Below, piece after piece: positions 1,723 to 33,201 of a stretch of DNA of 64,000 nucleotides. Every line of letters starts with the position of its first letter. Position 1 is the first letter of the stretch. The DNA comes from an uncultured Gammaproteobacteria bacterium (GTDB lineage: Bacteria > Patescibacteriota > Patescibacteriia > Patescibacteriales > GWE2-39-37). Below the pieces are notes generated by a model that did no database searches, was not told the origin of the DNA, and worked only from the letters and a program-made list of their open reading frames with translations. Both the position numbers and the translations under genes were made by a program. The DNA lies in assembly GCA_964443495.1 (NCBI GenBank), contig CAYUCS010000002.1:196021-260020 (forward strand), written 5' to 3'.

Positions 1723-1806
1723 TTATAAACTAAAAAATGGCTTATACTATAAGCTTAACGGCGGCAATCATTTGTCGCTAAAATATTCCCATATACAATA
1801 TATATA

Positions 1807-1815: not shown

Positions 1816-2005
1816 TAGAAGCTCTTTTAGACTGAAAGGTCCCGACTAAATACTTTTACCAAGGCAATTAGCTATGACATATTTGTCAAGAAAAAAGCAA
1901 ATAATTTAGTCCTTTTACGGACAATAAAATGCGCTAACATTTGCAAAGGCAAGCAATGGCAGCCCAATGACTTCGATTCATGGATACACTTATGCACAGA
2001 CAAAT

Positions 2006-2041
2006 AAAAAAGTGGCTACCCGCGAAAAGTAGCCACTTTTT
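2006..2041 (-). terminator. Rho-independent terminator downstream of the 5747-aa gene
   Basis: Stem aaaagtggctac / gtagccactttt (12 bp) with a 9-nt loop. A T-run follows on the minus strand and an A-run/T-run on both sides makes it potentially bidirectional. Confidence 0.8.
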
Positions 2042-2051
2042 CAAATTTTAT

Positions 2052-2060
2052 TTATCCACA
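2052..2060 (+). promoter_or_regulatory. Perfect DnaA-box-like 9-mer TTATCCACA (copy 1 of 3), between stop codon and terminator
   Basis: Exact TTATCCACA (10-mer TTTATCCACA) read directly. It lies between the TAG stop (2088..2090) and the terminator hairpin. The function is not established. Confidence 0.4.
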
Positions 2061-2087
2061 GTTACCTCGTCTTTTTTAAAAATCTTC

Positions 2088-5000
2088 CTAGTACTTGTTA
2101 ATCTTGACTGAGCCATCAATCTTCACGCCACCCCGGATGCGGGTCGAACCGCCATCCTCGTCGGCACCGATATCCCAGACACCGCCAATCGGACGCATCT
2201 GGCCATCAATATCTGTCATAAACGGCAAATATGGGTCATTGGCCAGACTTGCACCGGCATCGCGCGCGGCAGTATCGGTGTTGGAAAGGTGAAAATCACT
2301 CGAAGAAGCGTTAACGAAAATTACTGTCTGATTTGTTTTAGCATTGGAGCCATTCGCTGTCGCATCTTTTGAAAGATTGTTAGTCGAGCCAGCTTTCGGC
2401 GTGCCCGTGTAATCAACGCCATTGTTGTATGAGACATTATTCGAGTAGTACGAGTTGCTGGTCTGGGCGATGCCAATCGCATTGCCGTAAACGGTATTAT
2501 TATAAACGGCGGTGATGACGCTTGCTGAATTCAATGCCAATTTTATGCCGGTAGAGCCAGCAAAAGTGAAGCCATAAATAATATTGTTATTAACCTTAAC
2601 CTCTGAATCAGTGCCAGTCCAATAAACACCATGGCTAGCATACGTAGAGCTAGCATTCCAGATGATATTATTGGCAACAACCTGGCCCTTGCCGTAAAAC
2701 GGACTATTAGAAAAAACCCCAGAGCTGCCAAGAGTTTTTATTTGCAAACCCTCGACCTGGAAATAACTGATGTGGGTCGCGATTATTCCCTGTCTTACAA
2801 ACTTAGAATCATCCCATTTTCCAAGATGCCTCTGGCTGCTATTCGCCTCTGAATCGGTATCGTGTGGGGTATAAATACGCACATAGTTGTTCGGTCCCGT
2901 CGTGAAATACCCTATCGAGGACAATCCGCTAGAATCGGGGCCGCCGTCAGAGTAGCAAGGTATATTCAATACATAACCTTCTCCGACCAGATTGTTCGTG
3001 TTGAGATGGGTGCTATTTTTTACTCCAAAATTCTGATAATCGTAATCCTGATATGGAAACGCGTCATTAAGCGAGCCAAATGCATGCGCGATCGAGGCAA
3101 CCGGCGCAGTAGTGGTGGCCACTGGCAGTGTGCCCGTAGCGGAGGTGCAGCTCCAGGCTGTTTGTGATAACTTGCCGGCGATGTAGCACTTGTTTGAGCC
3201 ATAAGTCACCACATCTCCAACGCCCATATTTGAGGCCGTCTGGGCTTCAGAGAAAGTGGCGGTCGAGCCGCTAACCGTCACCGTTGGCGAGCCGGTCTTG
3301 TGGTCGTTCGTATTCTGACCGACAGAGTAATAAATCTGCGCCCCAGTCTCGTCCGCGCCAATATCCCAACCCAAACCCTTGCCTCGCGCCTGAGTATCAA
3401 CGTCCGTATTAAAGGCATAATTCGTGTCAGCTGACAAATCAGCGCCGGCATCGCGGGCGTACTTATCTGACAATTTCAAGCGGTAATCGCTCGACGAAGC
3501 GTCCATAAATTCCACCCTTACCCCATTCTTCGAATTAGTGCCAGGCGCATCAGAAGCAAGATCGGACAAATTATTACCAGATGAAGCGTTAAATGACCCA
3601 TGGTACCCATCACCGCAATTTTGCACAAGGTTATTTTTGGCAGTAAAAGTATTTGCCTCGGTAATTATGCCGTAATCACTATTATAGACAGTATTGTTAT
3701 AAGCGTAAGTAGTTAACCATCGTCCGTAAATGCCGCCGCTTAGCCCCCCACCGCCGGTCGGGGTGCTGAAACCGTAAACCAGATTATTTACTATAAGCAT
3801 TACGCCGGCGTTGCCGCCGCCGGAATAATTGACAATTCCGCCACCGCCGCCAGCATTAGCGCCAGAGACCGCTCCGGTATATTTCACTATGCAGTTGGAC
3901 ACCTCGACCTTGCCCGAACCGCTGGCAGACCTCCTGATGCCGTCATTCGTATAACCTCCCGCGCCCTTGGCCTCCACTTGAAGGCCGTCAATCTTTGCAT
4001 ATGCCGCTGTTATAGTCATCGCATTGCCCGTATCGCTAACTCCCAAAGAATATTTGCCGTTATCCCACTTTCCGCTATGCCGCTGGGTTTGATTGACTTC
4101 TGTCAATACATCGTTCGGCGCATACGCTTTTATATAGTTGGGCACTGCCGTTGTGAGGCCGCCTATTGTTACTATTGTCGTATCCTGGCTGCTGTCATAA
4201 TAGGCTGGCAGGTTAAGCTGCAGGTTGGCGGCGTACATGTCCGTTCCATTCATGTGCGTGGCATTGCCCGCTCCAGCAATGGCGGCCGAAAGCGAAGTGA
4301 ACTCGCGCGTGATGGAATCGACCGGCGAATTGGTGATGTTGGCCGGCATGGTGCCGGTGGCCGTCACCACGTACCAGACGGACGTTGAGGCCTTGCCCGA
4401 TATATAGGCCACCGAACTCGAACTGTTGTAAGTCACGCGGTCGCCCACGCCGATATTCCCTGTCTGCGCCGCTGAGAAGGTGGCCGTGCCCGAAGCGATG
4501 GTCACCGTCGGTGAGCCTGATTTCAAATCATTAGTAGTCTGCCCGACGGAATAATAAACGGCATTAGCCGGCTCATCGGCCCCGACGCTCCATGAACCAG
4601 CCCGACGCATCTGACCGTCCACATCAACATTGAAAGCTGAATTTGCATCAGCGCTCAAATCTGCTCCGGCATTTTTTGCAGCCGAATCTGATGGCGATAG
4701 ATGGAAATCCTTGTTCAAAGAGTCGGCAAACACGATATTTTGCGAAACCTTGTCATGGACATTCCCTCCGCCTGTCACAGTGTAGCCCAGACTGGAATTG
4801 GTAGTAACATTGTAGTCACTGCCGGACGCATAAGTATTGCCGCTGTGGAAATCGGCTACGCACCCGCTTAGCAAATTATTCTTCACCAACGCGATGGCCG
4901 TGCTGATTGCGAACGCCTCTTTGCAATTGACAGCCGTATTATTATAAACGGTCAAATTTCCGGTAGTGCCGGCCCACATAGAAAGCTGCACAGCAATGTT

Positions 5001-8000
5001 ACCAAGCGCTCCGGTCAATGGCTTGAAGTCTTGGAAGATATTATTGCTGATAATAAGATTGCCGACATTGACCGCCCCGGCCGGAAACGAAGAAATGGCA
5101 TAACCTGAATAAATACCGGTGGAAACGGCCTTGAATATGTTATTGCTGATTCTGATATCGCCGTAATCGTTAAGTGTCATGCCACCGCCGCCAGAAAAGC
5201 CTGAATTCACCTTGGCAATCTGCAATCCTTCGAATCGCACATGTTTGGCCGTGATATCGAAGGCGTAATTGTTACTATCTGCAATTTCAATCCTGGACTT
5301 ATAATCATCCCATCTGCCGTTGTGCCGTTGCGACTGATTGACCTCAGCCGTAGTGCTTGCCGGAGCATAAAAATTAATATAATTCGGCTGTGACGTAGTC
5401 CATCCGCTGATCGCCACGCTAGCGGTGTTCGCCCCGGAGTCGTAATACAATGGAAAATTAAGCTGATAATTGCCGGCGTACAAGTCTGACGTATTCAAAT
5501 GATTAGCGTCAATCGCACCTGATTCAGCGGTTGAGATGGAATTATAGGCATGGGCAATGGAATTAACCGTAGCGCCCGTCGCAGCGACCGGGGCGGTGCC
5601 GGTGGCCGTGGCGCAGTACCAAGCCGTGGTCGAAGCCTTTGATGTGATGTAGCATTTTTCAGTCGTGTTGTAGGTGATGACGTCGCCAACGCCTAAATTG
5701 GTAGCGGTCTGGGCGGCGGAGAACGTAGCCAGGCCAGTGGTCGAGCTGACAGTCACCGTCGGCGTACCGGTCTTGTGATCGCTCGTATTTTGTCCAACGG
5801 AATAATAGATAGCGACCGCCCCTTCATCGGCGCCGATATCCCAACCGCCCTGATTGCCGCGAGTGTGGCCGTCAAAGTCGGTACCAAAAGAGAAATTGGC
5901 ATCAGAACTCAAGTCTGCGCCGCGGTTGCGGGCGGTCGAGGAGGCGGCCAGGTGATAATCCTTGTTTAACGCATCAGCGAACTGGACGGTGGTTGTTGTC
6001 ATGGAATTAGCTCCTGGCGCCGTCCCATCGGAAGAAATATTGTTGCCGGCATAATCAAAACCGTAATTTTCGTAACCGACAGCCCCTGGATTGACTTGAA
6101 CGATGTTGTTGTAAATGGATATCGGTCCGCCCACATTAGTACTGAACGAAATGCCGACTTCATTCACGTTAACTACCGTATTGTTATATATGGCGACCTT
6201 TACCGGCTCGTAAGGATAGTTCATTCGGATTCCCTCGCCATAATCGTAAACAATATTATTGAAGACGTAAAAATTGGTATTATTATATCTATTTGTGATG
6301 CCCGACGAACCGATGCTTGGCGTCGTGCTGCCGGTTTTTCTTACGATATTATTGGAAATAATTACCACTGCCGACCTATCATCAACATCAGAGACAATTC
6401 CTTGCAAATTACTTGTCTCATCTATAGCGTTATCGATTTGCAAGCCGTCGATAGTAACGCTGCCGTCAATGATGGCGATATTGTTATATTGCCAATCAAA
6501 ATTTACTCTCGAATTGAATTTATTGTCATCCCATCGTCCCTGATGGCGCTGCGAAGCGTTTGCCTCGCTAGGCGTGTTCGGGGTATAAATCTTGATGATA
6601 TTATTCGGACTGGTCTTGATTCCCTCTATGGTCACATGATCGGTATCGGGCCCGGAATCAAAATAGCACGGCAAATTCAGTTGATGATTGGAGGCGGATA
6701 TATCGGCCGTATTCAGATGGCTGGCGTCGATCGACCCCGCAACGGCATTTGCCAAAGAATCGAATGCGTGCGCAATCGAACCGACCGTAGCGCTCGTAGT
6801 GGCTACTGGCGCCGTGCCGGTGGCAGTTTGGCAATACCAGGCGGTCGTCGAGGCTTTGCTTGTGATATAGCACTTGTCCGAGCCATAGGTGATGACATCG
6901 CCCACGCCCATATTGCTGGCGGTCTGGGCGACACTGAATGTGGCGATCCCGGTGGCCGAGCTTATCGTCACCGTCGGCGAGCCTGTCTTGTGGTCATTCG
7001 TATTCTGGCCGACGGAATAATAGACAGCTGTCGCGCCTTCGTCGGCGCCGATGTCCCACGAACCAGCGCGGGCGTGGCCGTCAATGTCGGTGCTGAAAGC
7101 AAAATTGGCATCAGCGCTCAAATCTGCGCCGATGTTGCGCGCGCTGCTTGAGGCCATCAGATGGAAGTCCTTGTTGGCGGGGTCGATGAATTGGATCGTT
7201 GTCGTAGTCAACGAGTTCGCTCCCGGGGCAGTCCCGTCCGAGGAGATGTTGTTTGAAGAGGAGGCGTTGAAGCTGCCCTGAAAGCAGGTGCCAGCTCCGC
7301 AATTTTGGGCGATGTTGTTCTTTGCAATCATATTGCCGCCAACCGCTACCCTGAATGACCAATAGCTATTGTTCACCGTATTGCCATACGCCACCAGGCT
7401 CGCACCATTGTTGACGACAAAGCCGTCACCGCCATCTCCGGCAATATCATAGCTTATATTATTGTAAGCTACCGCATTGCCAGCGGCGCACTCAAGTATC
7501 GCCCCGTAATTCGTCAGGCCACTTGAAACGATGTTGCTGGAAAAATACGCGGTCGAATTAGTGTCTATCAAATTGGCCCTAAAGGCTTGGACCCAACTAC
7601 CGGTTGATGTAAGTTTAACCTGCAAGCCCTCAATCCTGACATATGAATCACGGACTTCCAGGGCGGTCAGATCGCTGCCCGTGACATCGAGCGAATACTT
7701 GTTGCTATCCCACCTGCCACCATGGCGCTGTGACACATTCGCCTGCGTAGCCGTGTCATTGGGGGTGAATATTTTCAGATAGTTGCTCGGTCCCGTTGTT
7801 CTATCAGAAACGATAAGGTTGGTCGTATCCGGGCCGGAATCATAATATAACGAGAAATTGACTTGGAAATTAGCAGTAACCAAATCATAAGTATTTATAT
7901 GATCAGCATCCGAATAGCCTGCTTCGGCCGCGGCCAATGAGGTGTACTCCCTCTTGATCGAAGTGACCGGAGCGCTGGATGTCGCCTCAGGCAAGGTGCC

Positions 8001-11000
8001 GGTGGCAGTCACCAAATACCAAGCGGAAGTCGAGGCTTTGCCGGAGATATAATAAATAGTATTCGTGGCCACGGTTACTCTGTCGCCCACGCCAATGTTC
8101 CCTGTCTGAGCGGTTGAAAAAGTTGCTAGGCCAGTTGAGCTGGATATAGTGACGGTTGAAGTGCCAGTTTGCAGATCGGCCGTCGATTGACCGACAGAAT
8201 AATAGACTGGGGTTGCACCTTCATCAGCACCGATGTCCCAAGCCGTACCGTTTGGCCGGACATTGCCATCGATGTCAGCGTTAAAGTTAAAATCAATATC
8301 GGAGCTCAAATCAGAACCAGCGTTACGAGCGGCCGATGAGGCAGCAAGATGGTAATCTTTATTAGAGGCATCAACAAACTGAACTGTCGTTGTTGTCAAC
8401 GAATTGCTGCCTGGTGCCGTGCCATCGTATGAGATATTGCTAGTTGATGACGCGTGAAAATCACCGTCATAATCAACGCTGCCGGAATAAACTATATTAT
8501 TTTTTGCCAATATTATACGGCCTCCTCCTCCTGGCCCACGAGTATAAACTCCGTCATTGCCTGCGATTATCGTATTGTTATACAAATAGGTCAAGCCGCT
8601 TATTCCGATGGCGTTGTATGAATCATCTCTAAGACCATCGTCAACATCGTAGATAATATTATTTGAAATGTTTATTGAATAATGGTTTCCGGATTCCGGT
8701 TGAATTCCTATTTTAAAATTACTTGCATTTTTATTGCCCTTTACGATATTTTTATTTATATTGATTCCCGACGTACCATCGCTAATGTCCTGAATCAATA
8801 TTCCATTTGCTGGGTCATATTGGTTGTTGCCGAATTCGATTTGGATTCCCTCAATTTTTACATAATCATCGCTTATCGTAATTCCCGACGCAGGATAATT
8901 CTCAATATCATTCTTTATCGAATATTTCGAATCATCCCACTTGCCTTGATGTCGTTGTGATTGGTTAACCTCGACTGTCGAGCTGGCGGGAGTGTAAATT
9001 TTTATATAATTCGGCTGAGCTGTGGTCCAACCATCAATTGTTACGGCGTTTGCATCGGGACCGCTGTCATTATAGCAAGGAAAATTCAATTGATAATTAC
9101 CGGAATAAAGATTGCTAGTGTTTAAGTAATCTACACCAGTAGCATCAGTTTCTGCCGTATTTAGAGAGTCGAAGGCATGAGTGACTGAATCCACAATTGC
9201 ATCGGTCACTGCAAATGGAACAGTGCCGGTGGCAGCTTGACAATACCACGCCGTGGTCGAGGCCTTGCTCGTGATATAGCACTTGTTGGTCGTGCCATAA
9301 GTAATGACATCCCCCACGCCCATGTTTCCGGCTATTTGTTCTTCTGAAAATGTAGCTAAGCCAGTGGTTGAGCTGACGGTCACGGTCGGCGTGCCCGTCT
9401 TGTGGTCGCTCGTGTTCTGACCGACTGAATAATAAACAGCGACCGCCCCCTCATCAGCGCCGATGTCCCAACCGCCCTGATTGCCACGTGGATGGCCGTC
9501 GATGTCTGTGTTAATTGCCAGATTAGAATCGGCACTCAAATCAGCGCCGACATTACGCGCCGTCGAAGAGGCAGCCAGATGGTAATCCCTATTTAAAACA
9601 TCGGAAAACTGAACGGTTGTAGTAGTCAAAGAGTTAGTTCCAGGTGCCGTACCGTCGGAAGAAATATTATTTCCAGCATAATCGAAACCGTAATTCTCAT
9701 ACGCTATCGCCCCGGGATTTGCTTGGACAACATTATTGTAAATAGATATCGGCCCTCCCAAATTTGTGCTGAACGCAATACCGACTTCATTCACATCGAC
9801 TACCGTATTATTATAAATAGCAACCTTGACCGCCGCATAAGGATAATTCGTGCGAATTCCCTCGCCATAATCGTAAACTATGTTATTCCAGACATAAAGA
9901 CTGGTGTTATTATACCTATTATAAATACCGACCGAACCAGTACTTGGTGTGGTGCTGCCTGTTTTTCTAACTATGTTGTTGGAAATATTGATTACGGCTG
10001 AATTATCATCGACATCAGAAACAATGCCGTTAACATTGCTGGTCGCGTCAATCGCATTATCAACCTGCAAGCCGTCAATGGTGACGCTGCCATCAAGAAT
10101 GATTATGTTTTGATAATCAGTACCGTTGCTTACCTTCATACTAAACTTACCATCGTCCCACACGCCTTGATGTCTCTGGCTCTGATTCGCTTCATTAATG
10201 ACACTGTTTGGCGTATAAATTTTTATAAAATTTGCCGGATTGGCTAGGTATCCATCAACAACTATTTTTGAATCGGGGCCGCTATCGTAATAGCAAGGCC
10301 AATTCAATTGATAGTTGCCGGTCACCAAATCAGAAGTGTTCAAATAACTGGCTCCGCCAGATCCCGCCTCGGCCAAGCTTAGGGAGGAAAAAGCATGCGC
10401 GATTGAAGCCACGGTCGCGCTGGTCGTGGCAACTGGCATGGTGCCGGTAGCGGTCACGCAATACCAAGCGGTGGTGGAGGCTTTGGCCACAATAAAGCAC
10501 TTGTCCGAACCGTAGGTAATGACGTCGCCCACGCCCATATTGACGGCCGTCTGGGCGACGCTGAAGGTGGCTAAGCCGGTGGAGCTAGAGATGGTGACGG
10601 TCGGCGAGCCGGTCTTGTGGTCGCTCGTGTTCTGGCCGACCGAGTAATACACCGCCGTCGCGCCCTCATCAGCACCGACATCCCATTTGCCTGATTGTCG
10701 AGCGTGGCCGTCTATATCTGTTGTGAAAGCGAAATAAATATCCGCGCTCAAATCAGCACCGACGTTGCGCGCCGTCGAAGAGGCGGCCAAATGGAAATCA
10801 TCATTGGCATAATCGGCGAACTGCACAGTGGTCGTGGTCAGCGAGTTGGACCCGGGGGCGGTGCCATCGGAAGAGATGTTGTTTGAGGAAGAGGCGGAAT
10901 ACCCGGTTCCGAAGTTGATGTCCGTATTCTGGATAATATTGTTTCTCAATGAAATATTCGCCTTAGTGCCGGGAGTTACGCCGTAATCAGAGTTGATTAT

Positions 11001-19331: not shown

Positions 19332-19375
19332 TTTATGCTTGTGGGTGCATTAGAATCCAGCGCTTATTCTTTATT

Positions 19376-19384
19376 ATTATATCA
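19376..19384 (-). promoter_or_regulatory. Extended -10 promoter TGATATAAT of the 5747-aa gene
   Basis: The reverse complement reads TGATATAAT inside the block CAGGTGTGATATAATAATAAAGAATAAGCGC. The same block is repeated upstream of the 4499-aa gene (33071..33079). It lies ~45 nt upstream of the ATG at 19331. Confidence 0.65.
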
Positions 19385-19472
19385 CACCTGTGTCATTTTG
19401 GTTATCAAATTATCCTTATTGATTGATATTTTATTAGCTATTTTACACCACATTTTTAATGTTTTTGGCAAA

Positions 19473-19500
19473 TAAAAAACCGCTTATCGCTAAGCGGTCC
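19473..19500 (-). terminator. Rho-independent terminator downstream of the 4499-aa gene
   Basis: Stem accgctta / taagcggt with a 4-nt loop, followed on the minus strand by TTTTTTATTT. Confidence 0.75.
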
Positions 19501-19513
19501 GAAAATCAGTATT

Positions 19514-19522
19514 TTATCCACA
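19514..19522 (+). promoter_or_regulatory. Perfect DnaA-box-like 9-mer TTATCCACA (copy 2 of 3)
   Basis: Exact TTATCCACA, 3 nt from the TAG stop of the 4499-aa gene (19526..19528) and upstream of the terminator hairpin. Confidence 0.4.
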
Positions 19523-19525
19523 CCG

Positions 19526-25500: not shown

Positions 25501-28500
25501 TGCTGGAGATATAGTAAACAGTATTGGTCGCTACGGTCAGGCGGTCGCCCACGCCGATATTGCCTGTCTGGGCGGTCGAGAAGGTGGCCAGGCCAGTGGT
25601 GCTGGAGATGGTGACGGTCGAGGTGCCGGTCTGCAGGTCGGCGGTCGATTGGCCGACGGAATAATAGACGGCATTGGCCGGCTCGTCCGCACCGACGCTC
25701 CAAGAACTGCTTCGTCGTACTTGGCCATCAATGTCGGTATTGAAAGCATGATATTGGTCTGAACTAAGATTCGCGCCAGCATTTCGTGCGGTCGATGAAG
25801 CAGCTAAATGGTAATCTTTATTGGCAGCATCGGCAAAAGAAACAACCGTGCTGACCTTATCATTAACACCGCCCGTATTATCACCTGCCAAATCGGAAAT
25901 GTTATAATCAGAAGCGGCATTGAAGTTAGCTCCCCCCGAAAAACCATCGATACAGTTTTGCGCGATATTGTTTTTCGCGTAAAAAAGATGATTAGTGCTC
26001 CCAGCTGCAAAGCCGTCATAACAGTTGTACGCCAGGTTATTATAAGCTACGGTGTCCGTTGTAAAGGTGGCATAACAATTCTGCCTTGAAGAAATTTTCC
26101 CCCAATTATATGAGATATTATTCAAAATTTTCAGATGGCTATTTACGCCAGACAAGGTGGCAACACTTCCCATGTAATCATCGCTAGCGTGCGTATCCGG
26201 CCCCCTAAAAATAGAGGACGCGAGCCGAACGTTAAACGTGGAAATAGTGCTCAAATCGATGGCATACACGTTGCCAGCAGCTGACTTATTGTTGAAAATC
26301 TGGAGGCCTTCGATATTCAGATTCGGGACCTTTATCACCAATGCCGAAAACGCGGACGCTCCCGCGCTAGTGACGGACAAAGCATATTTGCTATCATCCC
26401 ATTTGCCCTGATGTCTCTGTGACTGATTAACCTCATTCGTCGTATTGTACGGCGTATAAATTTTTATATGATTTGACGCGGCAGTGGTATAATTTTGCAC
26501 TGTCACGACTGCCGTGTCTGAGCCGCTATCATAATAACAAGGAAAATTAAGCTGATAATTGCTTGACGCCAAATTTGAAGCGTTCAAATAGCTCGCGCCA
26601 GAAGCGCCTGTAACGCCCGCATTGAGGGATGAAAATGCATGCGCGATTGAATTAACCGTAGCGCCTGTCGCTGCAACTGGGGCGGTGCCGGTGGCGGTTT
26701 GGCAATACCAAGCGGTAGTCGAGGCTTTGGCAGTGATATAGCACTTCTCTGTCGTGTTATAGGTAATCACATCGCCCACACCCATATTGACCGCGGTCTG
26801 GGCCACATCAAAGGTAGCCAGTCCGGTGGTCGAACTGACCGTCACATTGGGCGAGCCGGTCTTGTGGTCTGATGTGTTCTGACCGACGGAATAATATATT
26901 GCCGTAGCGCCTTCGTCAGCTCCGATATCCCAAGCGCCCTGGTTGCCGCGGGCGTGGCCGTCAATGTCGGTCGAGAAGGCATAATTCGCGCCTGAACCCA
27001 AATCCACGCCGCGATTGCGGGCCGTCGAAGAGGCGGCAAGATGAAAATCTTTGTTCAACGCATCGGCAAACTGGACAGATATCGATGACGTGCTGAAAGT
27101 GGCATTCGGCGCATCGCCAGCTATATCTGAAATATTGTTATCCGATGATGAATCGACGATTCCCGTGCCGGTCCAGTTTATATAGCCATCCGAAGATCCC
27201 TGAACCAGATTGTTTTTCAAATACACCCTGCCAGTAGCATACCTGATGCCATGAGTGGAAGAACTCACCGTATTGTTATACGCATACATATTCGTACTCG
27301 ATGAGGACGGTTGGAAGATTATTCCGCGGCTTTCAGTGCCAGTAAACCCGTACAAGATATTGTTTGTCAGGACATATTTACCGTTGCTTCCGGAATCGAC
27401 ACCGAAGCCGCCCACATACGAGGTAGCGCTACCTTTGACGATATTGTTAGAAAAATAAACATTGGCATTATCAACGATATTTCTCACGACGTTATTATCA
27501 GGACTCGAAAGCTGCAATCCGTCGATTATAACATCCCTCTCCATGTTAAAAAGCGCTATTCCGGAGGCTGTGGACAATGCATATTTGCCATTTTCCCACG
27601 CACCGCTCGCACGCTGGCTCGAATTAACCTCGCTGGTTTCGCTGGTCGGCGTGTAAACCCTGATATAATTACTCGCCCCCGTCTCCCAGCCCAATATTGC
27701 GACCGCAGCGGAATCGACACCAGTATCGTAATAGCAAGGAAAATTAAGTTGATAATTACTTAATGCCAAATCAGAAGCATTAAGGTGGGCCGAGTCTGGC
27801 GCCCCGGCTTCAGCGGCCGATAGCGAGGCATAAGCATGAGCAATTGATGCCACAGTAGCACTGGTCGTGGCCACTGGCATCGTACCAGTGGCGGTTTGGC
27901 AGTACCAGGCGGTCGTCGAGGCTTTGCTTGTGATATAGCACTTATCCGATCCGTAAGTTATGACATCGCCCACGCCCATGTTGGCGGCGGTCTGGGCCAC
28001 GTCGAAGGTGGCCAGGCCGGTCGAGCTAGAGATGGTTACGACGGGCGAGCCGGTCTTGTGGTCGCTCGTGTTCTGGCCGACAGAGTAATAAACTGCGGTC
28101 GCGCCCTCGTCCGCGCCGATATCCCAGGCGCCACTACGCGTGTGACCGTCGATATCCGAAGAGAAAGCGAAGTTCGTGTCGGCACTTAAATCCGCACCGA
28201 CATTGCGCGCACTGCTTGATGCGGCAAGATGGTAATCCCCATTGGCAGCATCAGCAAAACTTACCACTGTCGAATCCTTAGGATTTGTTCCTGGCGCATC
28301 TGATGCCAAGTCGGAAATATTATTCGTGGACGAAGCGCTGACTATGAGACGGTATCCATCGACACAGTTCTGGGCAATGTTGTTTTTTACTATCACCGTA
28401 CCGCCTCCATTCGTAAAACAATAATTTGAATTGATTACAGTGTTGTTATAAAAATAACCATACCAGCCGCCAGAGCCGGAAGAAATGCCCTGCCCGTTGC

Positions 28501-31500
28501 TTACGTTGAAATCATAAACGATATTATTCGCAACATACCCGAAGCCAAAACCCATCGATGCTTCATAATTCAAGATAATGCCATACTTATTGGCCGCGTT
28601 GCCGCTATGCTTGATAATGTTATTCTTGATATGCATTTGCGCATTGTTCTCGCCGATCGATTGAGTCGTAATTCCGGTATTATCGATACCGTAAATCTGC
28701 AAGCCGTCAATCATTGTGTTTTTATCGAAAATAATGATGGCGGCGTTCGTAGAAACTTCCAGCCTGTAGCTCGTGTCCGCCCATTTTCCTTGATGCCGCT
28801 GGCTTGAATTGGCTTCATTGGCCGTGTTGTTCGGCGTGTACAGTTTAATGTAGTTAGGCAGTGCGGTTGAATAGCCGCCAATAGCCACGGGCGCCGTGTC
28901 GGCACCCGAATCATAGTAAGCCGGAATATTGAGTTGCATGTTCGAAATGTAAAGATCGGCTGTGTTCAAATGGCTTGAGTTGCTTGCACTAGCTACAGCA
29001 GACGACATCGAAGTAAATTCCCGCTTGATCGAAGTCACTGGGGCCGAGGTGGTGGCTTGCGGCAAAGTGCCGGTCGCGGTCACCACGTACCAGGCAGAGG
29101 TTGAGGCCTTGCCGGAGATATAGTAAACAGTATTGGTTGCTACGGTCACGCGATCGCCCACGCCGATATTGCCTGTCTGAGCGGTAGAGAAGGTGGCCAG
29201 GCCGGTGGTGCTGGAAATGGTGACGGTCGAGGTGCCGGTCTGCAGGTCGGCGGTCGATTGGCCGACGGAATAATAGACCGCGCTGGCGCCTTCGTCGGCA
29301 CCAATGTCCCAGGCAAGGTTATTCGGGCGCGTGTGGCCGTCGATATCCGAGGCAAAGGCCTTGTATGAATCGCTGGCCAGACTAACGCCGCTATCGCGCG
29401 CCGAGGTGTCGGCGCTGGCAAGATGGAAGTCCTTGTTGGCAGCGGAGGCGAAGGCAACATTCTTGTTTCTGAACGCCGTGTTGGGCGAAGAAGCGTCACT
29501 GGAGATATTGTTTGATGAAGAATATGTGGAGGTCCACACATTATACTGCATATTGAAGTTGCCATTCACTAAGTTGTTGGCCATATTCAACGTTCCAGTC
29601 GCATACCTGATGGCCCGGAAACCGTTATCGCTGTAAAACGTGTTGTTGTAAATATTACCAAGAAGGGTTGAATTCAAATTATAATAACCGGTGCTGCTAA
29701 AATCATAAACGTAATTGTTCCAAAAATTGACATTGGTTAAAATATGGGACTGTAAAAACACATCAACGAAATTGTGCAGGATTGAATTGCTTATGGATAC
29801 ATTGAAAGTTACCGACCCGGAAGGATCGATGCGTAAACCCTGGTCGGCGCCAGTGTCGGAATATAGCTCGATGCCGTCGAATTTTATATCCGGCAAAGAA
29901 ATATATAATTTGGCGTTCGCTCTCAAGCGATAACCCGTCCCCGCCTTGCCGGAATGGCGTTGGGAAGCGTTCGCTTCCGAGGCGGCGTTATTCGGCGTAT
30001 ATATTTTTATATAGTTATTCAGGGCCGTGGTGTATCCTGCCAAGGTCACTGCCGCAGTGTCCGCACTGCCATCATTATAGCAAGGCAAATTCAGAATCTT
30101 GTTAGTGCTCGCCAGATCGGCAGTATTAAGATACGATCCGCCGGATGCGCCGCTAATGGCAGCGGACAACGAACTGAACGCATGCGTTATCGAATCGACC
30201 GTAGCGCCAGTCGCGGCGACCGGCGCGGTGCCGGTGGCGGTTTGGCAATACCAAGCGGTAGTCGAGGCTTTGGCGGTGATGTAGCACTTCTCTGTCGTGT
30301 TATAGGTAATGACGTCGCCCACGCCCATATTAACCGCGGTTTGAGCCACATCGAAGGTAGCCAGGCCGGTGGTCGAGCTGACCGTCACATTGGGCGAGCC
30401 GGTCTTGTGGTCGGACGTATTCTGTCCGACCGAATAATAGATATGTGACGCACCCTCGTCGGCACCGATGTCCCAGGCACCCTGGTTGCCACGGGAGTGG
30501 CCGTCAATGTCGGCATTGAAGGCATAATTCGCATCAGCACTCAAGTCCGCGCCGGAGTTGCGCGCGGTCGAAGAAGCAGCCAAGTGAAAGTCTTCATTCA
30601 AGCTATCGGAGAATTGAACTACAGTTGAATTCAACTGGTTTTGACCAGGGGCGTCAGCATGATCAGAAATATTGCTAGTCGATGATGCGGAAAAAATCCC
30701 GCTGTACCCGACAGTCGATGAGGAGACGATGTTATTGGCAAGCACGGTTGACGAACCGTTATATAACCTTGTTACGCCATTAGAAGAATTGTGTACGGTA
30801 TTGTTGGCAATATTAACGCTTCCCTTGCCAACAACTAAAATGCCGGACGAATCCGTCGCTCCATCGTAGAAGCCGTAAATTATGTTGTTCGAGATATGAT
30901 ATTTACTGGCGATGCTGCCCAAGTTCCAATATTGGATCCTGATGCCATTCGGCGGCTCTGAGCCGAACGGAGCAGTAGCGATGCCCCTTATAATATTGCC
31001 CACGACATAAGCCTCGTAAGCCGCGTCTGGATCGGCTGAGCTGTTGTTTTCAATCTGTATGCCCTCTGCGCCAATCTGACCATTGTTATTTACACTGACC
31101 TGCAATCCCTCTATCCGAATATTTTCACTAATTGGGTTGATTGCTCGATCATAACCGTCAACACTCGCGACACTAAGATTGTATTTATTATCATCCCATA
31201 TGCCCTGATGTCGCTGAGACAGGTTGACCTCAATCGATTCGTTACTAGGGGTATAGATCTCAAGGTAATTATTTGCCGTCGTTTTATATCCTTGAACCTG
31301 GACGTGCGTCGTGTCAGGCCCGCTGTCATAGTAACAAGCCCAGTTGAGTTGATAATTATTAGCCGCTAAATCAGCCGTATTTAGATAAGTTGAGTTGGAT
31401 GAATTTGCCTCTGCGTTGAACAAGGAGGAAAATGCATGCGCAATCGACGCGACCGGCGCGCTGGTGGTGGCCACGGGCATGGTGCCGGTCGCCGTGACGC

Positions 31501-32908
31501 AATACCAAGCCGTGGTTGATGCTTTGGCGGTGATATAGCACTTATCCGAGCCGTAAGTAATGACATCGCCCACCCCCATATTTGATGCGGTCTGGGCCAC
31601 ATCAAAAGTAGCTAAGCCGGTGGTCGAGCTGACGGTCACTGTCGGCGTGCCGGTTTTGTGGTCGGACGTATTCTGCCCTACTGAATAATAAATGGCTGTC
31701 GCACCCTCGTCCGCGCCTATGTCCCAGGCGCGTGACACCGGACTGGTGGTCGAACGCGCGTGACCGTCGATATCAGTGCTGAAAGCGAAATAAGGGTCGT
31801 TGCTCAAGTCGGCACCGCGATTACGAGCCGTCGATGACGCGGCGAGATGAAAATCTTTGTTAGCCAGGTCGGCGAACTGCACAGTAGATGAAGCCATGGA
31901 GTTTGAACCTGGTGCAGTGCCATCAAAAGAAAGGTTATTTGTTGATGAAGCGTGAAATATCCCCGAATAACCAGTTACTCCATTTTGAACAACATTATTT
32001 TTTGCAACATCCAAGCTAGACCCAGCACTAATGCCAATATCGCACCCGAAAATAGTATTATTATAAAAATAACTTTCAGTGCCTTCTGCCACATCTTGAA
32101 TACAGCTATCAATTTGCGTTGATAAATTCCAGTTATAAATAATGTTGTTATAAATATAATAACTCCCATAAGCGTTGAAACCGATTCCATTGCCTTCATA
32201 GTCATGTGCAGAATTGTCTGAAGATGCGGTAATAATCGAATTGCTGATAACAAAATAACTGCCGGAATCAGACATTGTCTTTGTTATGCCGTAGTGATAT
32301 TGATTTGTGGTGAGGTTAATCTTGCATTGAACGCCTTCAATAATTGCATCATGTACGTTAGAACTTATGCAATAAGTCCCGCCACTAATATACAAGTTGT
32401 ATCTTACGTCATCCCACCTGCCTTGGTGCCTCTGGCTGAAATTAGCTTCAATACTCGTGCTGGCTGGGGTGTAAATTTTTATATACGTACTGGTGCCGGT
32501 CGTATAGCCTGTCACATTGACTGCGCTCGTGTCCGGGCCGGAGTCGTAATAACAAGGCAGGTTCAGGACAAGGTCGCCTCCAACCAGGCTGCTGGTAGCA
32601 GCATGATTGGCGTCGCTCGCTCCGGCGACTGCCGCGGCTAGCGAGGTGTATTCGCGTTTGATCGAGGTCACCGGCGCGCTGGAGGTTGCTTCGGGCATGG
32701 TGCCGGTGGCGGTAACGACATACCAGCCGGTCGATGAGGCCTTGCCGGAGATATAATAGACGGTGTTGGTGGCCACGGTCACCCGGTCGCCCACGCCGAT
32801 GTTGCCGGTCTGGGCGGCCGAGAAGGTGGCGAGGCCGGTCGTGCTGGAGATGGTCACGGTCGAGGTGCCGGTCTGCAGGTCGGCCGTCGATTGGCCGACA
32901 GAGTAATA
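19526..32908 (-). repeat. 11 tandem ~1.2-kb coding modules (intragenic repeat array)
   Basis: YYSVGQ codons at 32891..32908, 31673..31690, 30422..30439, 29258..29275, 28073..28090, 26879..26896, 25649..25666, 24470..24487, 23222..23239, 22013..22030 and 20816..20833. Spacings are 1164-1251 nt. Confidence 0.9.
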
Positions 32909-33025
32909 AACCGGGGTAGCAGCGTTAGCAGATTGGGCGCAGGCAAAAAACAAAAACACACCGGCCAGGGCCAGCATATTCTTGATCGCGTTCGCTTTGA
33001 ATCTATTTGAAAGGCTTGTTAGCAT
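19526..33025 (-). CDS. Giant secreted modular protein (4499 aa), paralog of 2088..19331 with 11 head/beta-helix/cap modules
   Basis: Uninterrupted 13,500-nt ORF with ATG at 33025 and signal peptide MLTSLSNRFKANAIKNMLALAGVFLFFACAQSANA (~88% nt identity to the other gene's 5' end by eye). It uses the same module grammar and ends with the same last two module types as the 5747-aa protein. Confidence 0.9.
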   Translation of the reverse strand: MLTSLSNRFKANAIKNMLALAGVFLFFACAQSANAATPVYYSVGQSTADLQTGTSTVTISSTTGLATFSAAQTGNIGVGDRVTVATNTVYYISGKASSTGWYVVTATGTMPEATSSAPVTSIKREYTSLAAAVAGASDANHAATSSLVGGDLVLNLPCYYDSGPDTSAVNVTGYTTGTSTYIKIYTPASTSIEANFSQRHQGRWDDVRYNLYISGGTYCISSNVHDAIIEGVQCKINLTTNQYHYGITKTMSDSGSYFVISNSIITASSDNSAHDYEGNGIGFNAYGSYYIYNNIIYNWNLSTQIDSCIQDVAEGTESYFYNNTIFGCDIGISAGSSLDVAKNNVVQNGVTGYSGIFHASSTNNLSFDGTAPGSNSMASSTVQFADLANKDFHLAASSTARNRGADLSNDPYFAFSTDIDGHARSTTSPVSRAWDIGADEGATAIYYSVGQNTSDHKTGTPTVTVSSTTGLATFDVAQTASNMGVGDVITYGSDKCYITAKASTTAWYCVTATGTMPVATTSAPVASIAHAFSSLFNAEANSSNSTYLNTADLAANNYQLNWACYYDSGPDTTHVQVQGYKTTANNYLEIYTPSNESIEVNLSQRHQGIWDDNKYNLSVASVDGYDRAINPISENIRIEGLQVSVNNNGQIGAEGIQIENNSSADPDAAYEAYVVGNIIRGIATAPFGSEPPNGIRIQYWNLGSIASKYHISNNIIYGFYDGATDSSGILVVGKGSVNIANNTVHNSSNGVTRLYNGSSTVLANNIVSSSTVGYSGIFSASSTSNISDHADAPGQNQLNSTVVQFSDSLNEDFHLAASSTARNSGADLSADANYAFNADIDGHSRGNQGAWDIGADEGASHIYYSVGQNTSDHKTGSPNVTVSSTTGLATFDVAQTAVNMGVGDVITYNTTEKCYITAKASTTAWYCQTATGTAPVAATGATVDSITHAFSSLSAAISGASGGSYLNTADLASTNKILNLPCYNDGSADTAAVTLAGYTTALNNYIKIYTPNNAASEANASQRHSGKAGTGYRLRANAKLYISLPDIKFDGIELYSDTGADQGLRIDPSGSVTFNVSISNSILHNFVDVFLQSHILTNVNFWNNYVYDFSSTGYYNLNSTLLGNIYNNTFYSDNGFRAIRYATGTLNMANNLVNGNFNMQYNVWTSTYSSSNNISSDASSPNTAFRNKNVAFASAANKDFHLASADTSARDSGVSLASDSYKAFASDIDGHTRPNNLAWDIGADEGASAVYYSVGQSTADLQTGTSTVTISSTTGLATFSTAQTGNIGVGDRVTVATNTVYYISGKASTSAWYVVTATGTLPQATTSAPVTSIKREFTSMSSAVASASNSSHLNTADLYISNMQLNIPAYYDSGADTAPVAIGGYSTALPNYIKLYTPNNTANEANSSQRHQGKWADTSYRLEVSTNAAIIIFDKNTMIDGLQIYGIDNTGITTQSIGENNAQMHIKNNIIKHSGNAANKYGIILNYEASMGFGFGYVANNIVYDFNVSNGQGISSGSGGWYGYFYNNTVINSNYCFTNGGGTVIVKNNIAQNCVDGYRLIVSASSTNNISDLASDAPGTNPKDSTVVSFADAANGDYHLAASSSARNVGADLSADTNFAFSSDIDGHTRSGAWDIGADEGATAVYYSVGQNTSDHKTGSPVVTISSSTGLATFDVAQTAANMGVGDVITYGSDKCYITSKASTTAWYCQTATGTMPVATTSATVASIAHAYASLSAAEAGAPDSAHLNASDLALSNYQLNFPCYYDTGVDSAAVAILGWETGASNYIRVYTPTSETSEVNSSQRASGAWENGKYALSTASGIALFNMERDVIIDGLQLSSPDNNVVRNIVDNANVYFSNNIVKGSATSYVGGFGVDSGSNGKYVLTNNILYGFTGTESRGIIFQPSSSSTNMYAYNNTVSSSTHGIRYATGRVYLKNNLVQGSSDGYINWTGTGIVDSSSDNNISDIAGDAPNATFSTSSISVQFADALNKDFHLAASSTARNRGVDLGSGANYAFSTDIDGHARGNQGAWDIGADEGATAIYYSVGQNTSDHKTGSPNVTVSSTTGLATFDVAQTAVNMGVGDVITYNTTEKCYITAKASTTAWYCQTATGTAPVAATGATVNSIAHAFSSLNAGVTGASGASYLNASNLASSNYQLNFPCYYDSGSDTAVVTVQNYTTAASNHIKIYTPYNTTNEVNQSQRHQGKWDDSKYALSVTSAGASAFSALVIKVPNLNIEGLQIFNNKSAAGNVYAIDLSTISTFNVRLASSIFRGPDTHASDDYMGSVATLSGVNSHLKILNNISYNWGKISSRQNCYATFTTDTVAYNNLAYNCYDGFAAGSTNHLFYAKNNIAQNCIDGFSGGANFNAASDYNISDLAGDNTGGVNDKVSTVVSFADAANKDYHLAASSTARNAGANLSSDQYHAFNTDIDGQVRRSSSWSVGADEPANAVYYSVGQSTADLQTGTSTVTISSTTGLATFSTAQTGNIGVGDRLTVATNTVYYISSKASTSAWYVVTATGTLPQATTSAPVTSIKREYTSMAAAVSGAVDASHLSTADLATANVQLNIPAYYDSGADTATVNVIGYKTGVPNFIKLYTPRNTVTEANFSQRHRGKTGGSNFSIKPATGRAVAIGSKNVRVDGLEIDMAISNTFAIVLNYSSTDVFDSYVSNNLISNVAGDWAGLIECGDGAAGSKVHIYNNILSNVPGGSERRAIRISGATLTAYVYNNTFYNVGRALWSNGATIIAKNNTAQICTEYCYFDLNASSTNNISSDATSPDVDLLNVNVAFADVLNKDFHLAASSTARNRGADLSADANFAFSTDIDGHGRSGLWDIGADEGATAVYYSVGQNTSDHKTGSPVVTISSSTGLATFDVAQTASNMGVGDVITYGSDKCYITAKASTTAWYCATATGTMPVATTSATVTSITHSFNSLNAALPAGAGGAKGAGFLNASDLVTGNYQLNVPCYYDSGPDIASVAIDGWTTSPSNYLKVYTPSDTVNEVNYNQRHQGQWDDTKYRLVHTSAGDYQTTLSVLASFVTIDGMQLHRIASSGINEHIIGANPRSVYGRTNDIRVTNNIIRGEYSGANNATAVYYANGSGIADASGVVANNIIYDIKSGTSTGYKTIRLQTQDRVSVYSNTIVNCGTGVETYYNNYGVLKNNAVQGCADGFNGTFNSLSDYNISDIVGDAPNATFSTSSIVVQFADSANKDFHLAASSSARNAGVNLSGDANFAFASDIDAHARPAGSWDIGSDEGATPIYYSVGQNTSDHKTGSPTVTISSTTGLATFSVAQTATNMGVGDVITYGTTNKCYITSKASTTAWYCQSATGTPPVAATDATVNSIAHAFSSLSAAESGAVGASYLNTSNLTGNNYQLNIPCYYDSGPDTAGVIIDGWTASPNNHIRVYTPASTTAEANASQRHQGKWDDLKYRLEYTTNTTWQRQLFIVNFYTKIDGLQVKLTYGHGNSFAIDGAAMEVSNNIVQGVATAANIVGSGLSTGGEGSRIYNNLIYGFRDINSSSGRCYNFSNSWNDLGVYVYNNTAYNCHTGFTDSSGLAVSFKNNIVQNSVNGFYESVMHSSSDYNISDLAADAPGANSKNSVTVQFADSANKDFHLLPGGIVAKNAGTDLSVDPYFSFVADIDGQPRPNGGIWDIGADEAANAVYYSVGQSTADLKTGSPTVTIASGTATFSVAQIGNIGVGDRVTYNSSSSVAYISGKASTTVWYLVTATGTMPADITNSTVDSIKREYTSMSAAISGVVDASHMNTSDLTAANLQLNLPAYYDSGADAAEVDIIGFTTGAPNYIRLYAPENAVTEVNSRQRHGGKWNNSSYRTLGSSYGNFYTIQADHTVIDGLQIERDTDNMPDGIVVYANNVILRNNIIKSTQLITNIGRGIELGYDYTNAKVYNNIIYGYKKLSGSNSSSIYVPTNKHYIYNNTIVNCDIGVYGQYAENSILKNNITQGCAEGFANYTTHTFSSASDNNISDVAGDAPNATYSTSSIDVRFVDEANADYHLAASSSARNAGANLGTDANFTFSADIDGQARGNGLGWDIGADEAPAPVYYSVGQDTNDHKTGAPTVTVSSTTGLATFSEAQTAANMGVGDVITYGAASSKCYISEKISTSVWRCVTATGTSPFATSSAAVASIAHAYASLSAAEAGATDASHLNASDLVTGNYQLNFPAYHDTGHDLSRVTVSGYTASALNYIKIYAPNSVSSEANSSQRHAGIWDDSKFALSYGATRWDSVLYIGVPYTVVDGLQIEHVATQTDARVGYSANAEGVKISNSIVRLPSRNGSPAEYGVNSGGYSIDIYNNIVYGWGGGIRSANNIQPGATINVYNNTVYGIADVGFGQWGYPASVAYVNLKNNLSSAGSDDFAFDLGGNVTQQYQNNLSFDLTSPNAGATDCGGHGCRNQVVRFINASSSDFRLSPFDSAARNSAANLSVDALLPFNIDIAGNARNFGGAWDIGAFEDGDTAFYGTTRVRQGKMIIDGKMRIE

Positions 33026-33070
33026 TTTTATGCTTGGGGAAAGTTTAGGATACTGCGCTTATTCTTTATT

Positions 33071-33079
33071 ATTATATCA
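33071..33079 (-). promoter_or_regulatory. Extended -10 promoter TGATATAAT of the 4499-aa gene
   Basis: Same CAGGTGTGATATAATAATAAAGAATAAGCGC block as at 19361..19391, ~46 nt upstream of the ATG at 33025. Confidence 0.65.
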
Positions 33080-33169
33080 CACCTGACGCCTTTTTTGCGA
33101 TTTATTCCACCGTGCCCTGGCATAAAATCAGCTTTATTTTACACCACTTTCAGACGATTAATGCAAATT

Positions 33170-33201
33170 AAAAACGCTGCCCGAAATCGGGCAGCGTTTT
33201 T
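33170..33201 (-). terminator. Rho-independent terminator downstream of the 185-aa gene
   Basis: 13-bp stem aaaacgctgcccg / cgggcagcgtttt with loop aaat and a T-run on the minus strand. Confidence 0.85.

Follow-up and report, generated by a model that had tools for sequence, protein, structure and literature searches.

How can two very long tandem arrays keep one order of module types when the greater part of every module is unrelated to its neighbours? The question is raised by two giant genes, gene 1 and gene 2, whose open reading frames (ORFs) make up 30.7 kb of a 64-kb stretch of contig CAYUCS010000002.1 (the window, to which all coordinates refer). Each gene encodes a chain of modules, typically of ∼405 aa, that begin with a short 'head' of class A, B or C, and both genes follow the plan (A-B-C)n + A'B', with n = 4 in gene 1 and n = 3 in gene 2. 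The original prediction, made from the DNA alone, held that this plan reflects a super-repeat of ∼3.6 kb and that the gene pair arose by duplication followed by unequal recombination in register with that unit. We found the plan to be common to both genes, but it is a pattern of head types and not a 3.6-kb DNA repeat. Our best reading of the locus, to which we assign a probability of about 60%, is a scaffold of conserved and homogenised junctions between which the beta-helix bodies can be exchanged.

The order of the heads

Modules were delimited by the motif Y[YF]S[VI]G (YYSVGQ), which marks 14 starts in gene 1 and 11 in gene 2, and their lengths range from 388 to 435 aa. An alignment of the 25 modules (∼480 columns) can be divided into a very conserved head (the first ∼95 columns), a moderately conserved stretch that we call head2 (the next ∼85 columns, ∼50% identity), a core of ∼200 columns in which any two modules are ∼25% identical, within and between the genes, and a tail of ∼100 columns (40–80% identity) that ends in WDIGADE and joins the YYSVGQ of the next module without a linker. 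The junction, i.e. the last ∼60 aa of a module together with the next head, is highly conserved within the window genome, and junctions are the only sequence homology along the array. Like junctions are 85–95% identical, compared with ∼57–63% between A junctions and those of classes B and C. The 25 modules carry 24 mutually unrelated beta-helix cores, the exception being the cores of the eighth and eleventh modules of gene 1 (g1 m8 and g1 m11), which are 78% identical at the amino-acid level. A core identity of ∼25% is far beyond what diversity-generating retroelements and other kinds of targeted mutagenesis produce.

The A heads are free of cysteine and the B and C heads have two (CYIT...WYC). 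On the reverse strand, A heads start at 19214, 15569, 11849, 8204 and 4556 in gene 1 (spacings of 3645, 3720, 3645 and 3648 nt) and at 32908, 29275, 25666 and 22030 in gene 2 (spacings of 3633, 3609 and 3636 nt), exactly as predicted, and the head of g1 m6, which had been described as a hybrid, was confirmed as a B-like head in a C position. Head identity is 81–87% between modules three apart (lag 3) and 80–83% at lag 6, compared with 64–68% at other lags; none of 2000 permutations reached the value observed at lag 3 (p 0.000). This signal is limited to alignment columns 0–95 and recurs only weakly in the final ∼50. Columns 135–180 do not show it, and in the core it is marginal (p=0.04) and driven by one pair.

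The predicted super-repeat thus survives as a period of three in the head types, but not as a repeated sequence of ∼3.6 kb. Tandem Repeats Finder, which covered periods of up to 500 nt, reported no arrays in positions 2000–33300, and self-comparison by BLASTN aligned only junction blocks (tail end plus next head) of 0.3–0.75 kb with 68–86% identity. The one exception was a 2-kb block (71%) between g1 m7–m9 and g1 m10–m12, which reflects the similar cores of g1 m8 and m11. A neighbour-joining tree of the heads with bootstrap support recovered the A class in full, as A and A' heads together, A heads proper and the two A' heads each received 100%. The other two classes fared less well: six of the seven C heads grouped at 70%, leaving out g1 m6, and the B heads formed an unresolved grade, although a one-residue indel before the first cysteine separates B from C in 13 of 14 heads.

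The same rhythm is found outside the window. We examined 27 non-redundant multi-module genes from 119 related loci (numbered L below; further members of the family are numbered P), in which type A heads are marked by S.ADL.TG, G-NIGVGD, SIK[RH]E and the lack of cysteine. Type A heads usually occupy every third module, and the genes usually end in an A-x pair. Nine genes have the five-module plan A-x-x-A-x (L051, L081, L095, L018, L006, L068, L056 and L052/L011), L063 and P0181 have the eight-module plan A-x-x-A-x-x-A-x, and two others are built as 2+3+3+2 (L024) and 1+3+2 modules (L007). Head identity peaked at lag 3 in 13 of the 20 relatives' genes with at least five modules, in which the cores are ∼25% identical at every lag, and P0181 and P0196 (8 modules) are further cases of period three. 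When 11 genes with a head period were compared pairwise, 46 of the 55 pairs shared no body (maximum core identity ≤41%); the exceptions were L068/L063 with five related bodies, L056/L052 with two identical ones and seven pairs with one related body each. That the plan is kept in relatives with mostly unrelated bodies suggests that the order of the heads is itself maintained.

The period is not always three. Heads alternate as A-x-A-x in L005, L012 and L060, have a period of five in L102, P0176 and P0178 and a period of four in P0177 (17 modules, lag-4 head identity 74%), and the Desulfarculales genes have heads of the Cys type only. Thus, periodic head scaffolds seem to characterise the family in general, beyond this locus. 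The idea that relatives would differ in steps of three modules holds for the five- and eight-module A-x-x plans, but module counts of 3, 4, 6, 7, 10 and 17 also occur, and such steps (5, 8, 11, 14) are met in the closest architectural relatives and are not a law of the family.

Probable separate histories of junctions and bodies

It is likely, in our judgement, that junctions and bodies have had separate histories, through conversion and/or cassette exchange. In sliding windows, modules of the same class within a genome are 93–100% identical in columns 0–75 and 73–83% identical at the tail end, and 8–30% identical in the core, whereas homologous modules from different genomes show a flat profile of ∼50–70% over the whole length, head included. 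The A heads of the window form a clade of their own (82%), and the heads of the relatives also cluster by genome or genome group. The bodies do not follow this grouping, as several of them have counterparts elsewhere with 48–69% core identity (g2 m7 and L076 m1, 69%; g1 m3 and L007 m2, 62%; g1 m12 and L007 m1, 51%; g2 m4 and L070, 50%; g1 m4 and L054 m1, 48%; g1 m14 and L004 m2, 48%) and are closer to these than to any body within the window (∼25%). Heads and tail ends therefore show concerted evolution, with paralogues within a genome more alike than homologues between genomes. Among these relatives, the cores of L004 m1 (Moranbacteria GW2011_GWE2_36_40) and of the start module of L008 (Planctomycetes GWF2_42_9) are 100% identical, and near-identical sequence under two phyla suggests a mis-binned contig.

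Bodies have also changed heads and places. Module g1 m3 begins with a C head, cysteine pair included, and its homologue L007 m2 with an A head. Overall identity of these modules is 55%, and from residue 119 onward it is ∼65–70%. Family-wide, the head class is switched in 10 of 88 pairs of homologous bodies. Between the five modules of L068 and the eight of L063 the bodies are reordered, with m1, m2, m3, m4 and m5 of the former corresponding to m1, m7, m2, m4 and m5 of the latter.

At the DNA level, identical amino acids in the heads share the same codon in 47–66% of cases against an expected 32–36%. Sharing matches expectation in head2 and core (0.38–0.41 vs 0.39–0.41) and exceeds it slightly at the end of the tail (last 50 columns, 0.42–0.44 vs 0.36–0.37). 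Synonymous divergence is reduced in the heads, where the proportion of different sites (pS) is 0.52–0.65, compared with 0.78–0.87 in the other parts of the module, and 29 of the 38 exact DNA matches of at least 24 nt begin in the first 300 nt of a module. The G+C content at third codon positions (GC3) of the heads is 69% (sd 6), equal to that of the neighbouring genes in the window (61–77%), and that of the cores is 50% and over-dispersed (sd 9.6, range 29–73, for a binomial expectation of sd 3.6). Mean head GC3 exceeded mean core GC3 in 27 of the 27 relatives' genes examined, e.g. 60 vs 30 in L018, from a low-GC genome, where head GC3 lies far above the G+C content of the flanks (35%). The high head GC3 could reflect biased gene conversion, foreign origin of the bodies, or both. 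An artefact of amino-acid composition was ruled out, as heads and cores also differ in GC3 when one amino acid at a time is compared (T, A, S, G, V, D, I, K, F and H), and accuracy selection for preferred codons was rejected, as heads are richer in GC3 than cores also in low-GC relatives. Over positions 2088–33025 and loci L004–L122, head GC3 exceeds core GC3 by 5–30 points across the family and by ∼20–30 points in many genes, irrespective of the G+C content of the genome.

Taken together, the sliding windows, head clustering, codon use, GC3 and head switches exclude simple co-divergence of heads and bodies. Codon sharing and the higher head GC3 point to conversion of the junctions class by class; switched heads, reordered bodies and over-dispersed core GC3 point to replacement of bodies anchored in the junctions. 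Accordingly two routes, both of which may operate, can be envisaged. Within the genome, gene conversion would homogenise the junctions of each class, and the conserved junctions would serve as anchors for recombination that exchanges bodies as cassettes. Since A junctions differ clearly from B and C junctions, homologous recombination should pair like with like, and such pairing would add, delete or swap segments in register, thereby keeping the plan (A-x-x)n + A-x and making steps of three modules the easiest change of length. As to why the period is three, units of three modules may fold or pack together, or a partner may bind the A heads. We regard as rather doubtful, though worth stating, a stronger version, in which the periodic junctions are a selected 'assembly code' and not a fossil of duplication. 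Class-specific junctions of head and tail (A followed by two non-A) would mark out structural units of three modules and serve as register-keeping recombination anchors for swaps of bodies, as cassettes, within and between Patescibacteria genomes. If it were true, the cell would have a built-in means of re-assorting a surface glycan-recognition battery while the architecture of the fibre is kept.

Several observations speak against a homogenised scaffold with exchangeable bodies. Long identical conversion tracts are missing, as no exact DNA match in the 31-kb locus is longer than 62 nt, and the corrected synonymous divergence (dS) of the heads is about 1.0–1.6, so any homogenisation must be old or slow. 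Head conversion and body import predict the same mosaic and are not separated here: the window, with head GC3 equal to that of the neighbours and low core GC3, fits body import, and the low-GC relatives, with heads above their flanks, fit biased conversion. The head classes of the relatives were set by a simple motif rule; their genes are not fully independent examples, because some pairs share bodies, and several come from related genomes; many members of the family have no head period or a different one; and the full locus is present in one assembly only. Lineage-specific purifying selection on the heads also retains some probability.

The alternative that dispenses with homogenisation altogether, i.e. 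an ancient amplification of ABC units whose heads stayed alike by strong purifying selection while the bodies diverged under diversifying selection, would account for the missing tracts and for head dS of about 1 or more, and within the module it is indeed the head that is most conserved throughout the family. We nevertheless consider it improbable. Heads of homologous modules from different genomes are 50–66% identical, compared with 85–100% for paralogous heads within a genome, yet the cores of the same cross-genome pairs are far more similar than those of the paralogues. The clustering of heads by genome, the excess of identical synonymous codons in the heads only and the homologous bodies under different head classes argue in the same direction.

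Equally unlikely is the literal form of the original prediction, in which a gene was duplicated and a single unequal crossover then left two collinear copies that differ by one ABC unit. In scaffold at least, the two genes are paralogous: they share the plan, the upstream box described below and a 5' end with 86% DNA identity over the first 564 nt, and the least diverged pair of heads is formed by the first heads of the two genes (dS 0.38). The claim that the terminal A'B' pairs are orthologous is borne out for the A' heads, which are specifically related (87%), but not for the B' heads (71%), and the cores of these pairs are not specifically related (A' 34%, B' 26%). Gene 1 is 1248 aa longer than gene 2, a difference of three modules that matches the length of no unit (1203–1240 aa). 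Some support for three-module steps comes from g1 m8 and m11, whose cores form the window's one similar pair, at a distance of exactly three modules, but stem from an old duplication (pS 0.73), and from the relatives with the same plan in five and eight modules. Against the model, the cores of the two genes are ∼25% identical at every position, which leaves no collinear orthology, synonymous sites are saturated outside the heads (pS 0.78–0.87 in head2, core and tail), and exact matches are as short as noted above. No recent unequal crossover is visible, and no gained or lost unit can be named. A history of duplication and deletion is insufficient, because heads cluster by genome while some bodies are closer to other genomes than to the sister gene. 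The missing collinear body pairs argue against a recent version of the model, and an ancient version with complete turnover of the bodies keeps a small probability.

The arrays themselves appear to be correctly assembled. Contig L001 (3.7 kb, European Nucleotide Archive sample ERZ27247100) is 98% identical to window positions 1702–4481 and independently confirms the 3' end of gene 1, i.e. its last 1.9 modules; it ends inside the head of g1 m13. Residues 17–4499 of gene 2 are identical to library protein P0175. That the periodic pattern stems from collapsed or chimeric joins between similar junctions is barely credible: although the junctions are up to 86% alike, enough to trouble short-read assemblers, L001 does break inside a head, gene 1 is not in the protein collections searched and the contig index has no record of the exact gene 2 product, the reading frames are intact over 17.2 and 13.5 kb, every core is unique, junction identity is too low for collapse, the matches to L001 and P0175 hold, and independent metagenome-assembled genomes (MAGs) have the same architecture. 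As short-read assemblies break in junctions, complete arrays are under-represented in public data. The same-species contigs (1.8 kb, the 3.7-kb L001 and a 13.9-kb contig from ERZ27247100 with the histidyl-tRNA synthetase (HisRS) gene) are too short to span the array. Three relatives' loci with HisRS 77–81% identical to that of the window were compared for synteny. The run signal peptidase – HisRS – small ORF – YqeY is kept in the two that reach past HisRS, and the giant genes are absent downstream of HisRS in both, so they offer no orthologous locus for counting modules; the third contig ends just after HisRS.

Fold, possible function and known systems

An AlphaFold2 model of g1 m4 (mean predicted local distance difference test score, pLDDT, 93.5) has six short strands (residues ∼17–84), one helix (90–96) and then a right-handed beta-helix with regular short strands from residue ∼115 to 330. 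On this model the module is predicted to be a six-strand beta-barrel head of ∼90 aa followed by a right-handed parallel beta-helix of the pectate-lyase-like fold and a conserved C-terminal cap similar to choice-of-anchor Q. The head modelled alone was also a six-strand barrel (pLDDT 83), but a fold search with it returned only generic barrels of this kind (phage endosialidase barrel, F1-ATPase crown, E1 barrel) at E ≥ 0.07, from which no function can be drawn. The module is an autonomous unit, because single-module homologues, found in many uncultured bacteria, start directly at the YYSVGQ head. The family is large: a threshold of E ≤ 1e-3 gives 15,799 cluster representatives, of which 6776 remain at E ≤ 1e-10. 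Moranbacteria, Parcubacteria and Falkowbacteria MAGs hold the best relatives of the window modules (40–60% identity).

The best Foldseek matches of g1 m4 in the PDB were pectate lyase Pel9A (E = 4e-4), Rhombotarget A and lacto-N-biosidase LnbX, followed by pectin methylesterase, PL6 alginate lyases and the A modules of AlgE epimerases, among them AlgE4 and AlgE6; all are weak (template modelling score, TM, ∼0.3), and all the top matches are beta-helix enzymes. Fold matches in BFVD were to phage right-handed beta-helix proteins. A module profile reaches PL6 lyases (E = 1.9e-5 to 1.6e-4) over local stretches of ∼120–130 residues (7o78, chondroitinase B), and there was no significant full-length match of the modules to the PL6 or PL9 families. 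In the tail, NF041518 (choice-of-anchor Q, 58 residues), the only NCBIfam model with a match, scored 26.7 bits in g1 m1–m3, above its cut-off of 25, and 16.4 bits, below the cut-off, in the other region scanned, the last two modules. The cap motif reads DFHL...A.N.G...DIDG..R...WDIGADE. Asparagines N254/N255, N280 and N304/N305 (motifs NNI, YNNT and KNN) are invariant at coil spacing in 25 of 25 modules, and Y120, D122, D126, Q159, R160, H161, D392, R398, D407 and E408 (numbering of the first sequence of alignment A2) are further conserved polar residues.

Given this fold, it is an even bet whether each module is a distinct glycan-binding or glycan-cleaving unit, so that the two proteins would be surface or extracellular batteries of 11 and 14 specificities. 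Each core would then offer its own binding groove, and the arrays would serve an epibiotic, scavenging cell. Such a function is made less secure by the similarity to lyases being at the level of fold only, by a Pfam search of five modules that found no family, and by the placement of the conserved residues, known from sequence alone. Attachment to the surface faces similar objections: the C-termini of both proteins have no transmembrane segment or LPXTG motif and end in a short basic tag only, and no membrane or cell-wall anchor was identified in either protein. A tailspike origin of the modules received no support, as PHROGs searches with modules and single-module homologues gave nothing relevant, and no trimerisation or phage context was found.

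Giant modular proteins that have a super-repeat and act at the surface or outside the cell are a known kind, of which this locus is probably a new form, and we found no description of this architecture in the searchable open-access literature. Titin and nebulin, giant muscle proteins of eukaryotes, consist of Ig/Fn3 or nebulin modules that are position-specific over their whole length, with a period that fits a filament lattice. The likeness lies in giant arrays with a fixed multi-domain period, in which domains at the same position are more alike than neighbours; here, however, only the ∼90-aa N-terminal barrel is periodic, the bodies are unrelated, and there is no homology and no known lattice partner.

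The nearest multi-beta-helix secreted proteins are the AlgE mannuronan C-5 epimerases of Azotobacter, which have one or two mutually similar A modules separated by RTX-type R modules. They too are secreted, with more than one complete right-handed beta-helix module and paralogues that differ in module number, whereas the present arrays have 11–14 beta-helices without linkers and with unrelated cores. PL6 and PL9 lyases and phage tailspike depolymerases share the fold, which is known there as a single right-handed beta-helix, but the low TM and local similarity do not support placing the modules in a lyase family. The choice-of-anchor Q proteins may have the C-terminal cap motif in common with the modules, given the match above the cut-off in g1 m1–m3, and the corresponding model describes a 58-residue domain, not a functional family.

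Giant adhesins (the G5-E arrays of SasG/Aap, Bap, SiiE and the Marinomonas ice-binding adhesin) have whole repeats that are near-identical and evolve in concert. They resemble the present proteins as Sec-exported (here predicted), very long arrays whose repeat sequence is kept alike within a genome, but here only the junction is kept alike and every repeat body is different. In the glucan-degradation locus of Caldicellulosiruptor, glycanases have near-identical binding modules and linkers and differing catalytic domains (2–3). Conserved connectors, shuffled diverse carbohydrate-active bodies (putatively so here) and neighbouring paralogous genes are common to both systems; the glycanases have no positional period and different folds.

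The locus, its neighbours and what it may mean

The features of the two genes are listed in the table. Both N-termini, read by eye from the translation, have a charged n-region, a hydrophobic core and an A-x-A site, and both proteins are therefore predicted to be exported by the Sec pathway. The public gene call for gene 2 (P0175) starts at Met17 (positions 32978–33025 being left out), which would drop the charged n-region; we favour Met1 because DNA conservation between the two genes runs through codons 1–16. An identical 31-nt box precedes each gene and is a candidate promoter, although a consensus scan called no –35/–10 promoter at the box of gene 1. With its own terminator and upstream box, each gene looks like a separate transcription unit.

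Features of the giant-gene locus, in window coordinates (g, gene; m, module)
Feature	Positions	Strand	Description or basis
Gene 1	2088–19331	-	ORF of 5747 aa; 14 modules, (A-B-C)x4 + A'B'
Gene 2	19526–33025	-	ORF of 4499 aa; 11 modules, (A-B-C)x3 + A'B'
Gene 1 signal peptide (predicted)	19215–19331	-	39 aa, ...FFACAHSASA|AT; read from translation
Gene 2 signal peptide (predicted)	32909–33025	-	39 aa, ...FFACAQSANA|AT; ∼93% DNA identity to that of gene 1
31-nt box upstream of gene 1	19360–19390	-	CAGGTGTGATATAATAATAAAGAATAAGCGC; exact repeat; contains extended –10-like TGTGATATAAT
Identical 31-nt box upstream of gene 2	33055–33085	-	Exact repeat and alignment
Terminator-like hairpin and T-run after gene 2 stop codon	19477–19500	-	Hairpin scan
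Terminator-like hairpin and T-run after gene 1 stop codon	2005–2043	-	Hairpin scan
Hairpin GCTGCCCG-ATTT-CGGGCAGC and T-run	33176–33195	-	After upstream 185-aa gene, before gene 2 box; read from alignment
g1 m1, A head	17997–19214	-	Module starts, head tree
g1 m2, B head	16779–17996	-	Head tree, Cys indel
g1 m3, C head	15570–16778	-	Body homologous to L007 m2, which has A head
g1 m4, A head	14331–15569	-	Module modelled with AlphaFold2
g1 m5, B head	13068–14330	-	Module starts, head tree
g1 m6, C position, B-like head (ITYGSDKCYIT)	11850–13067	-	Head tree, Cys indel
g1 m7, A head	10650–11849	-	Module starts, head tree
g1 m8, B head	9435–10649	-	Core 78% identical to m11
g1 m9, C head	8205–9434	-	Module starts, head tree
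g1 m10, A head	7023–8204	-	Module starts, head tree
g1 m11, B head	5808–7022	-	Old in-register duplicate of m8 body
g1 m12, C head	4557–5807	-	Module starts, head tree; body counterpart L007 m1
g1 m13, A' head	3333–4556	-	Module starts, head tree
g1 m14, B' head	2091–3332	-	Then ∼25-aa basic C-terminal tag RIRGGVKIDGSVKINKY
g2 m1, A head	31691–32908	-	Module starts, head tree
g2 m2, B head	30440–31690	-	Module starts, head tree
g2 m3, C head	29276–30439	-	Module starts, head tree
g2 m4, A head	28091–29275	-	Module starts, head tree
g2 m5, B head	26897–28090	-	Module starts, head tree
g2 m6, C head	25667–26896	-	Module starts, head tree
g2 m7, A head	24488–25666	-	Lowest core GC3 (29%); 69% identical counterpart in L076
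g2 m8, B head	23240–24487	-	Module starts, head tree
g2 m9, C head	22031–23239	-	Module starts, head tree
g2 m10, A' head	20834–22030	-	Module starts, head tree
g2 m11, B' head	19529–20833	-	Then basic C-terminal tag RVRQGKMIIDGKMRIE

The basic tags at the C-termini (encoded at 2091–2165 in gene 1 and at 19529–19600 in gene 2) may act as sorting or retention signals. Comparison with the C-termini of relatives (L063, L068, L029, L024, L062 and L064) revealed two types of ending among the family members in Patescibacteria: a basic tag of ∼16–25 aa right after the last module, as in gene 1, gene 2 and L063 (VQFNRNVQLKRNVQIK), or one or two LamG-like domains that finish in ...GQV.IRK.

Directly upstream of gene 2 (33228–36803, reverse strand) are two small proteins of 185 and 190 aa, each with an apparent hydrophobic segment and no Pfam match, and beyond them an 809-aa protein that is apparently polytopic and has C-terminal TPR repeats. 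Relatives without the giant genes do not have these three genes at the syntenic position either, and a role of their products in export or anchoring is possible. Further along, a third giant gene (39781–46884, reverse strand; 2367 aa) encodes a protein whose N-terminal half has Kelch repeats and whose remainder has six or more domains similar to purple-acid-phosphatase-N/FN3; at 40–44 kb both the G+C content (0.58–0.60) and the GC skew (0.16–0.25) of the DNA are unusually high. The region 55128–62307 (reverse strand) carries a module similar to complex I or group-4 [NiFe]-hydrogenase, in a Patescibacteria genome, and adjoins the genes for ATP synthase epsilon and beta (62462–63834). It comprises a fused 30-kDa + 49-kDa large subunit with a match to NiFeSe_Hases, two antiporter subunits similar to Mrp/NuoL-M, a 20-kDa small subunit and a NuoH-like protein fused to a 4L-like segment.

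HisRS, encoded at 37752–39101, has its nearest named relatives in Candidatus Falkowbacteria (84%) and in MAGs labelled 'Patescibacteria group', and on sequence grounds we place the host genome in the Patescibacteria (candidate phyla radiation, CPR). These bacteria are tiny and mostly epibiotic, and their host-contact surface molecules are largely unknown. If each core does recognise or cut a different glycan, the two arrays would account for much of the cell's equipment for attachment or scavenging.

For the study of tandem arrays, the locus provides a clean natural case of a large body that evolves apart from the small junction domain next to it. Junctions are alike and ordered at a fixed period, and the bodies are ancient, diverse and occasionally re-assorted; this decoupling of periodic, homogenised junctions from ancient, exchangeable bodies is its most interesting aspect. 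The family, with thousands of members and periods from two to five, lends itself to comparative study and offers a hypothesis for how the length of an array may change in quanta.

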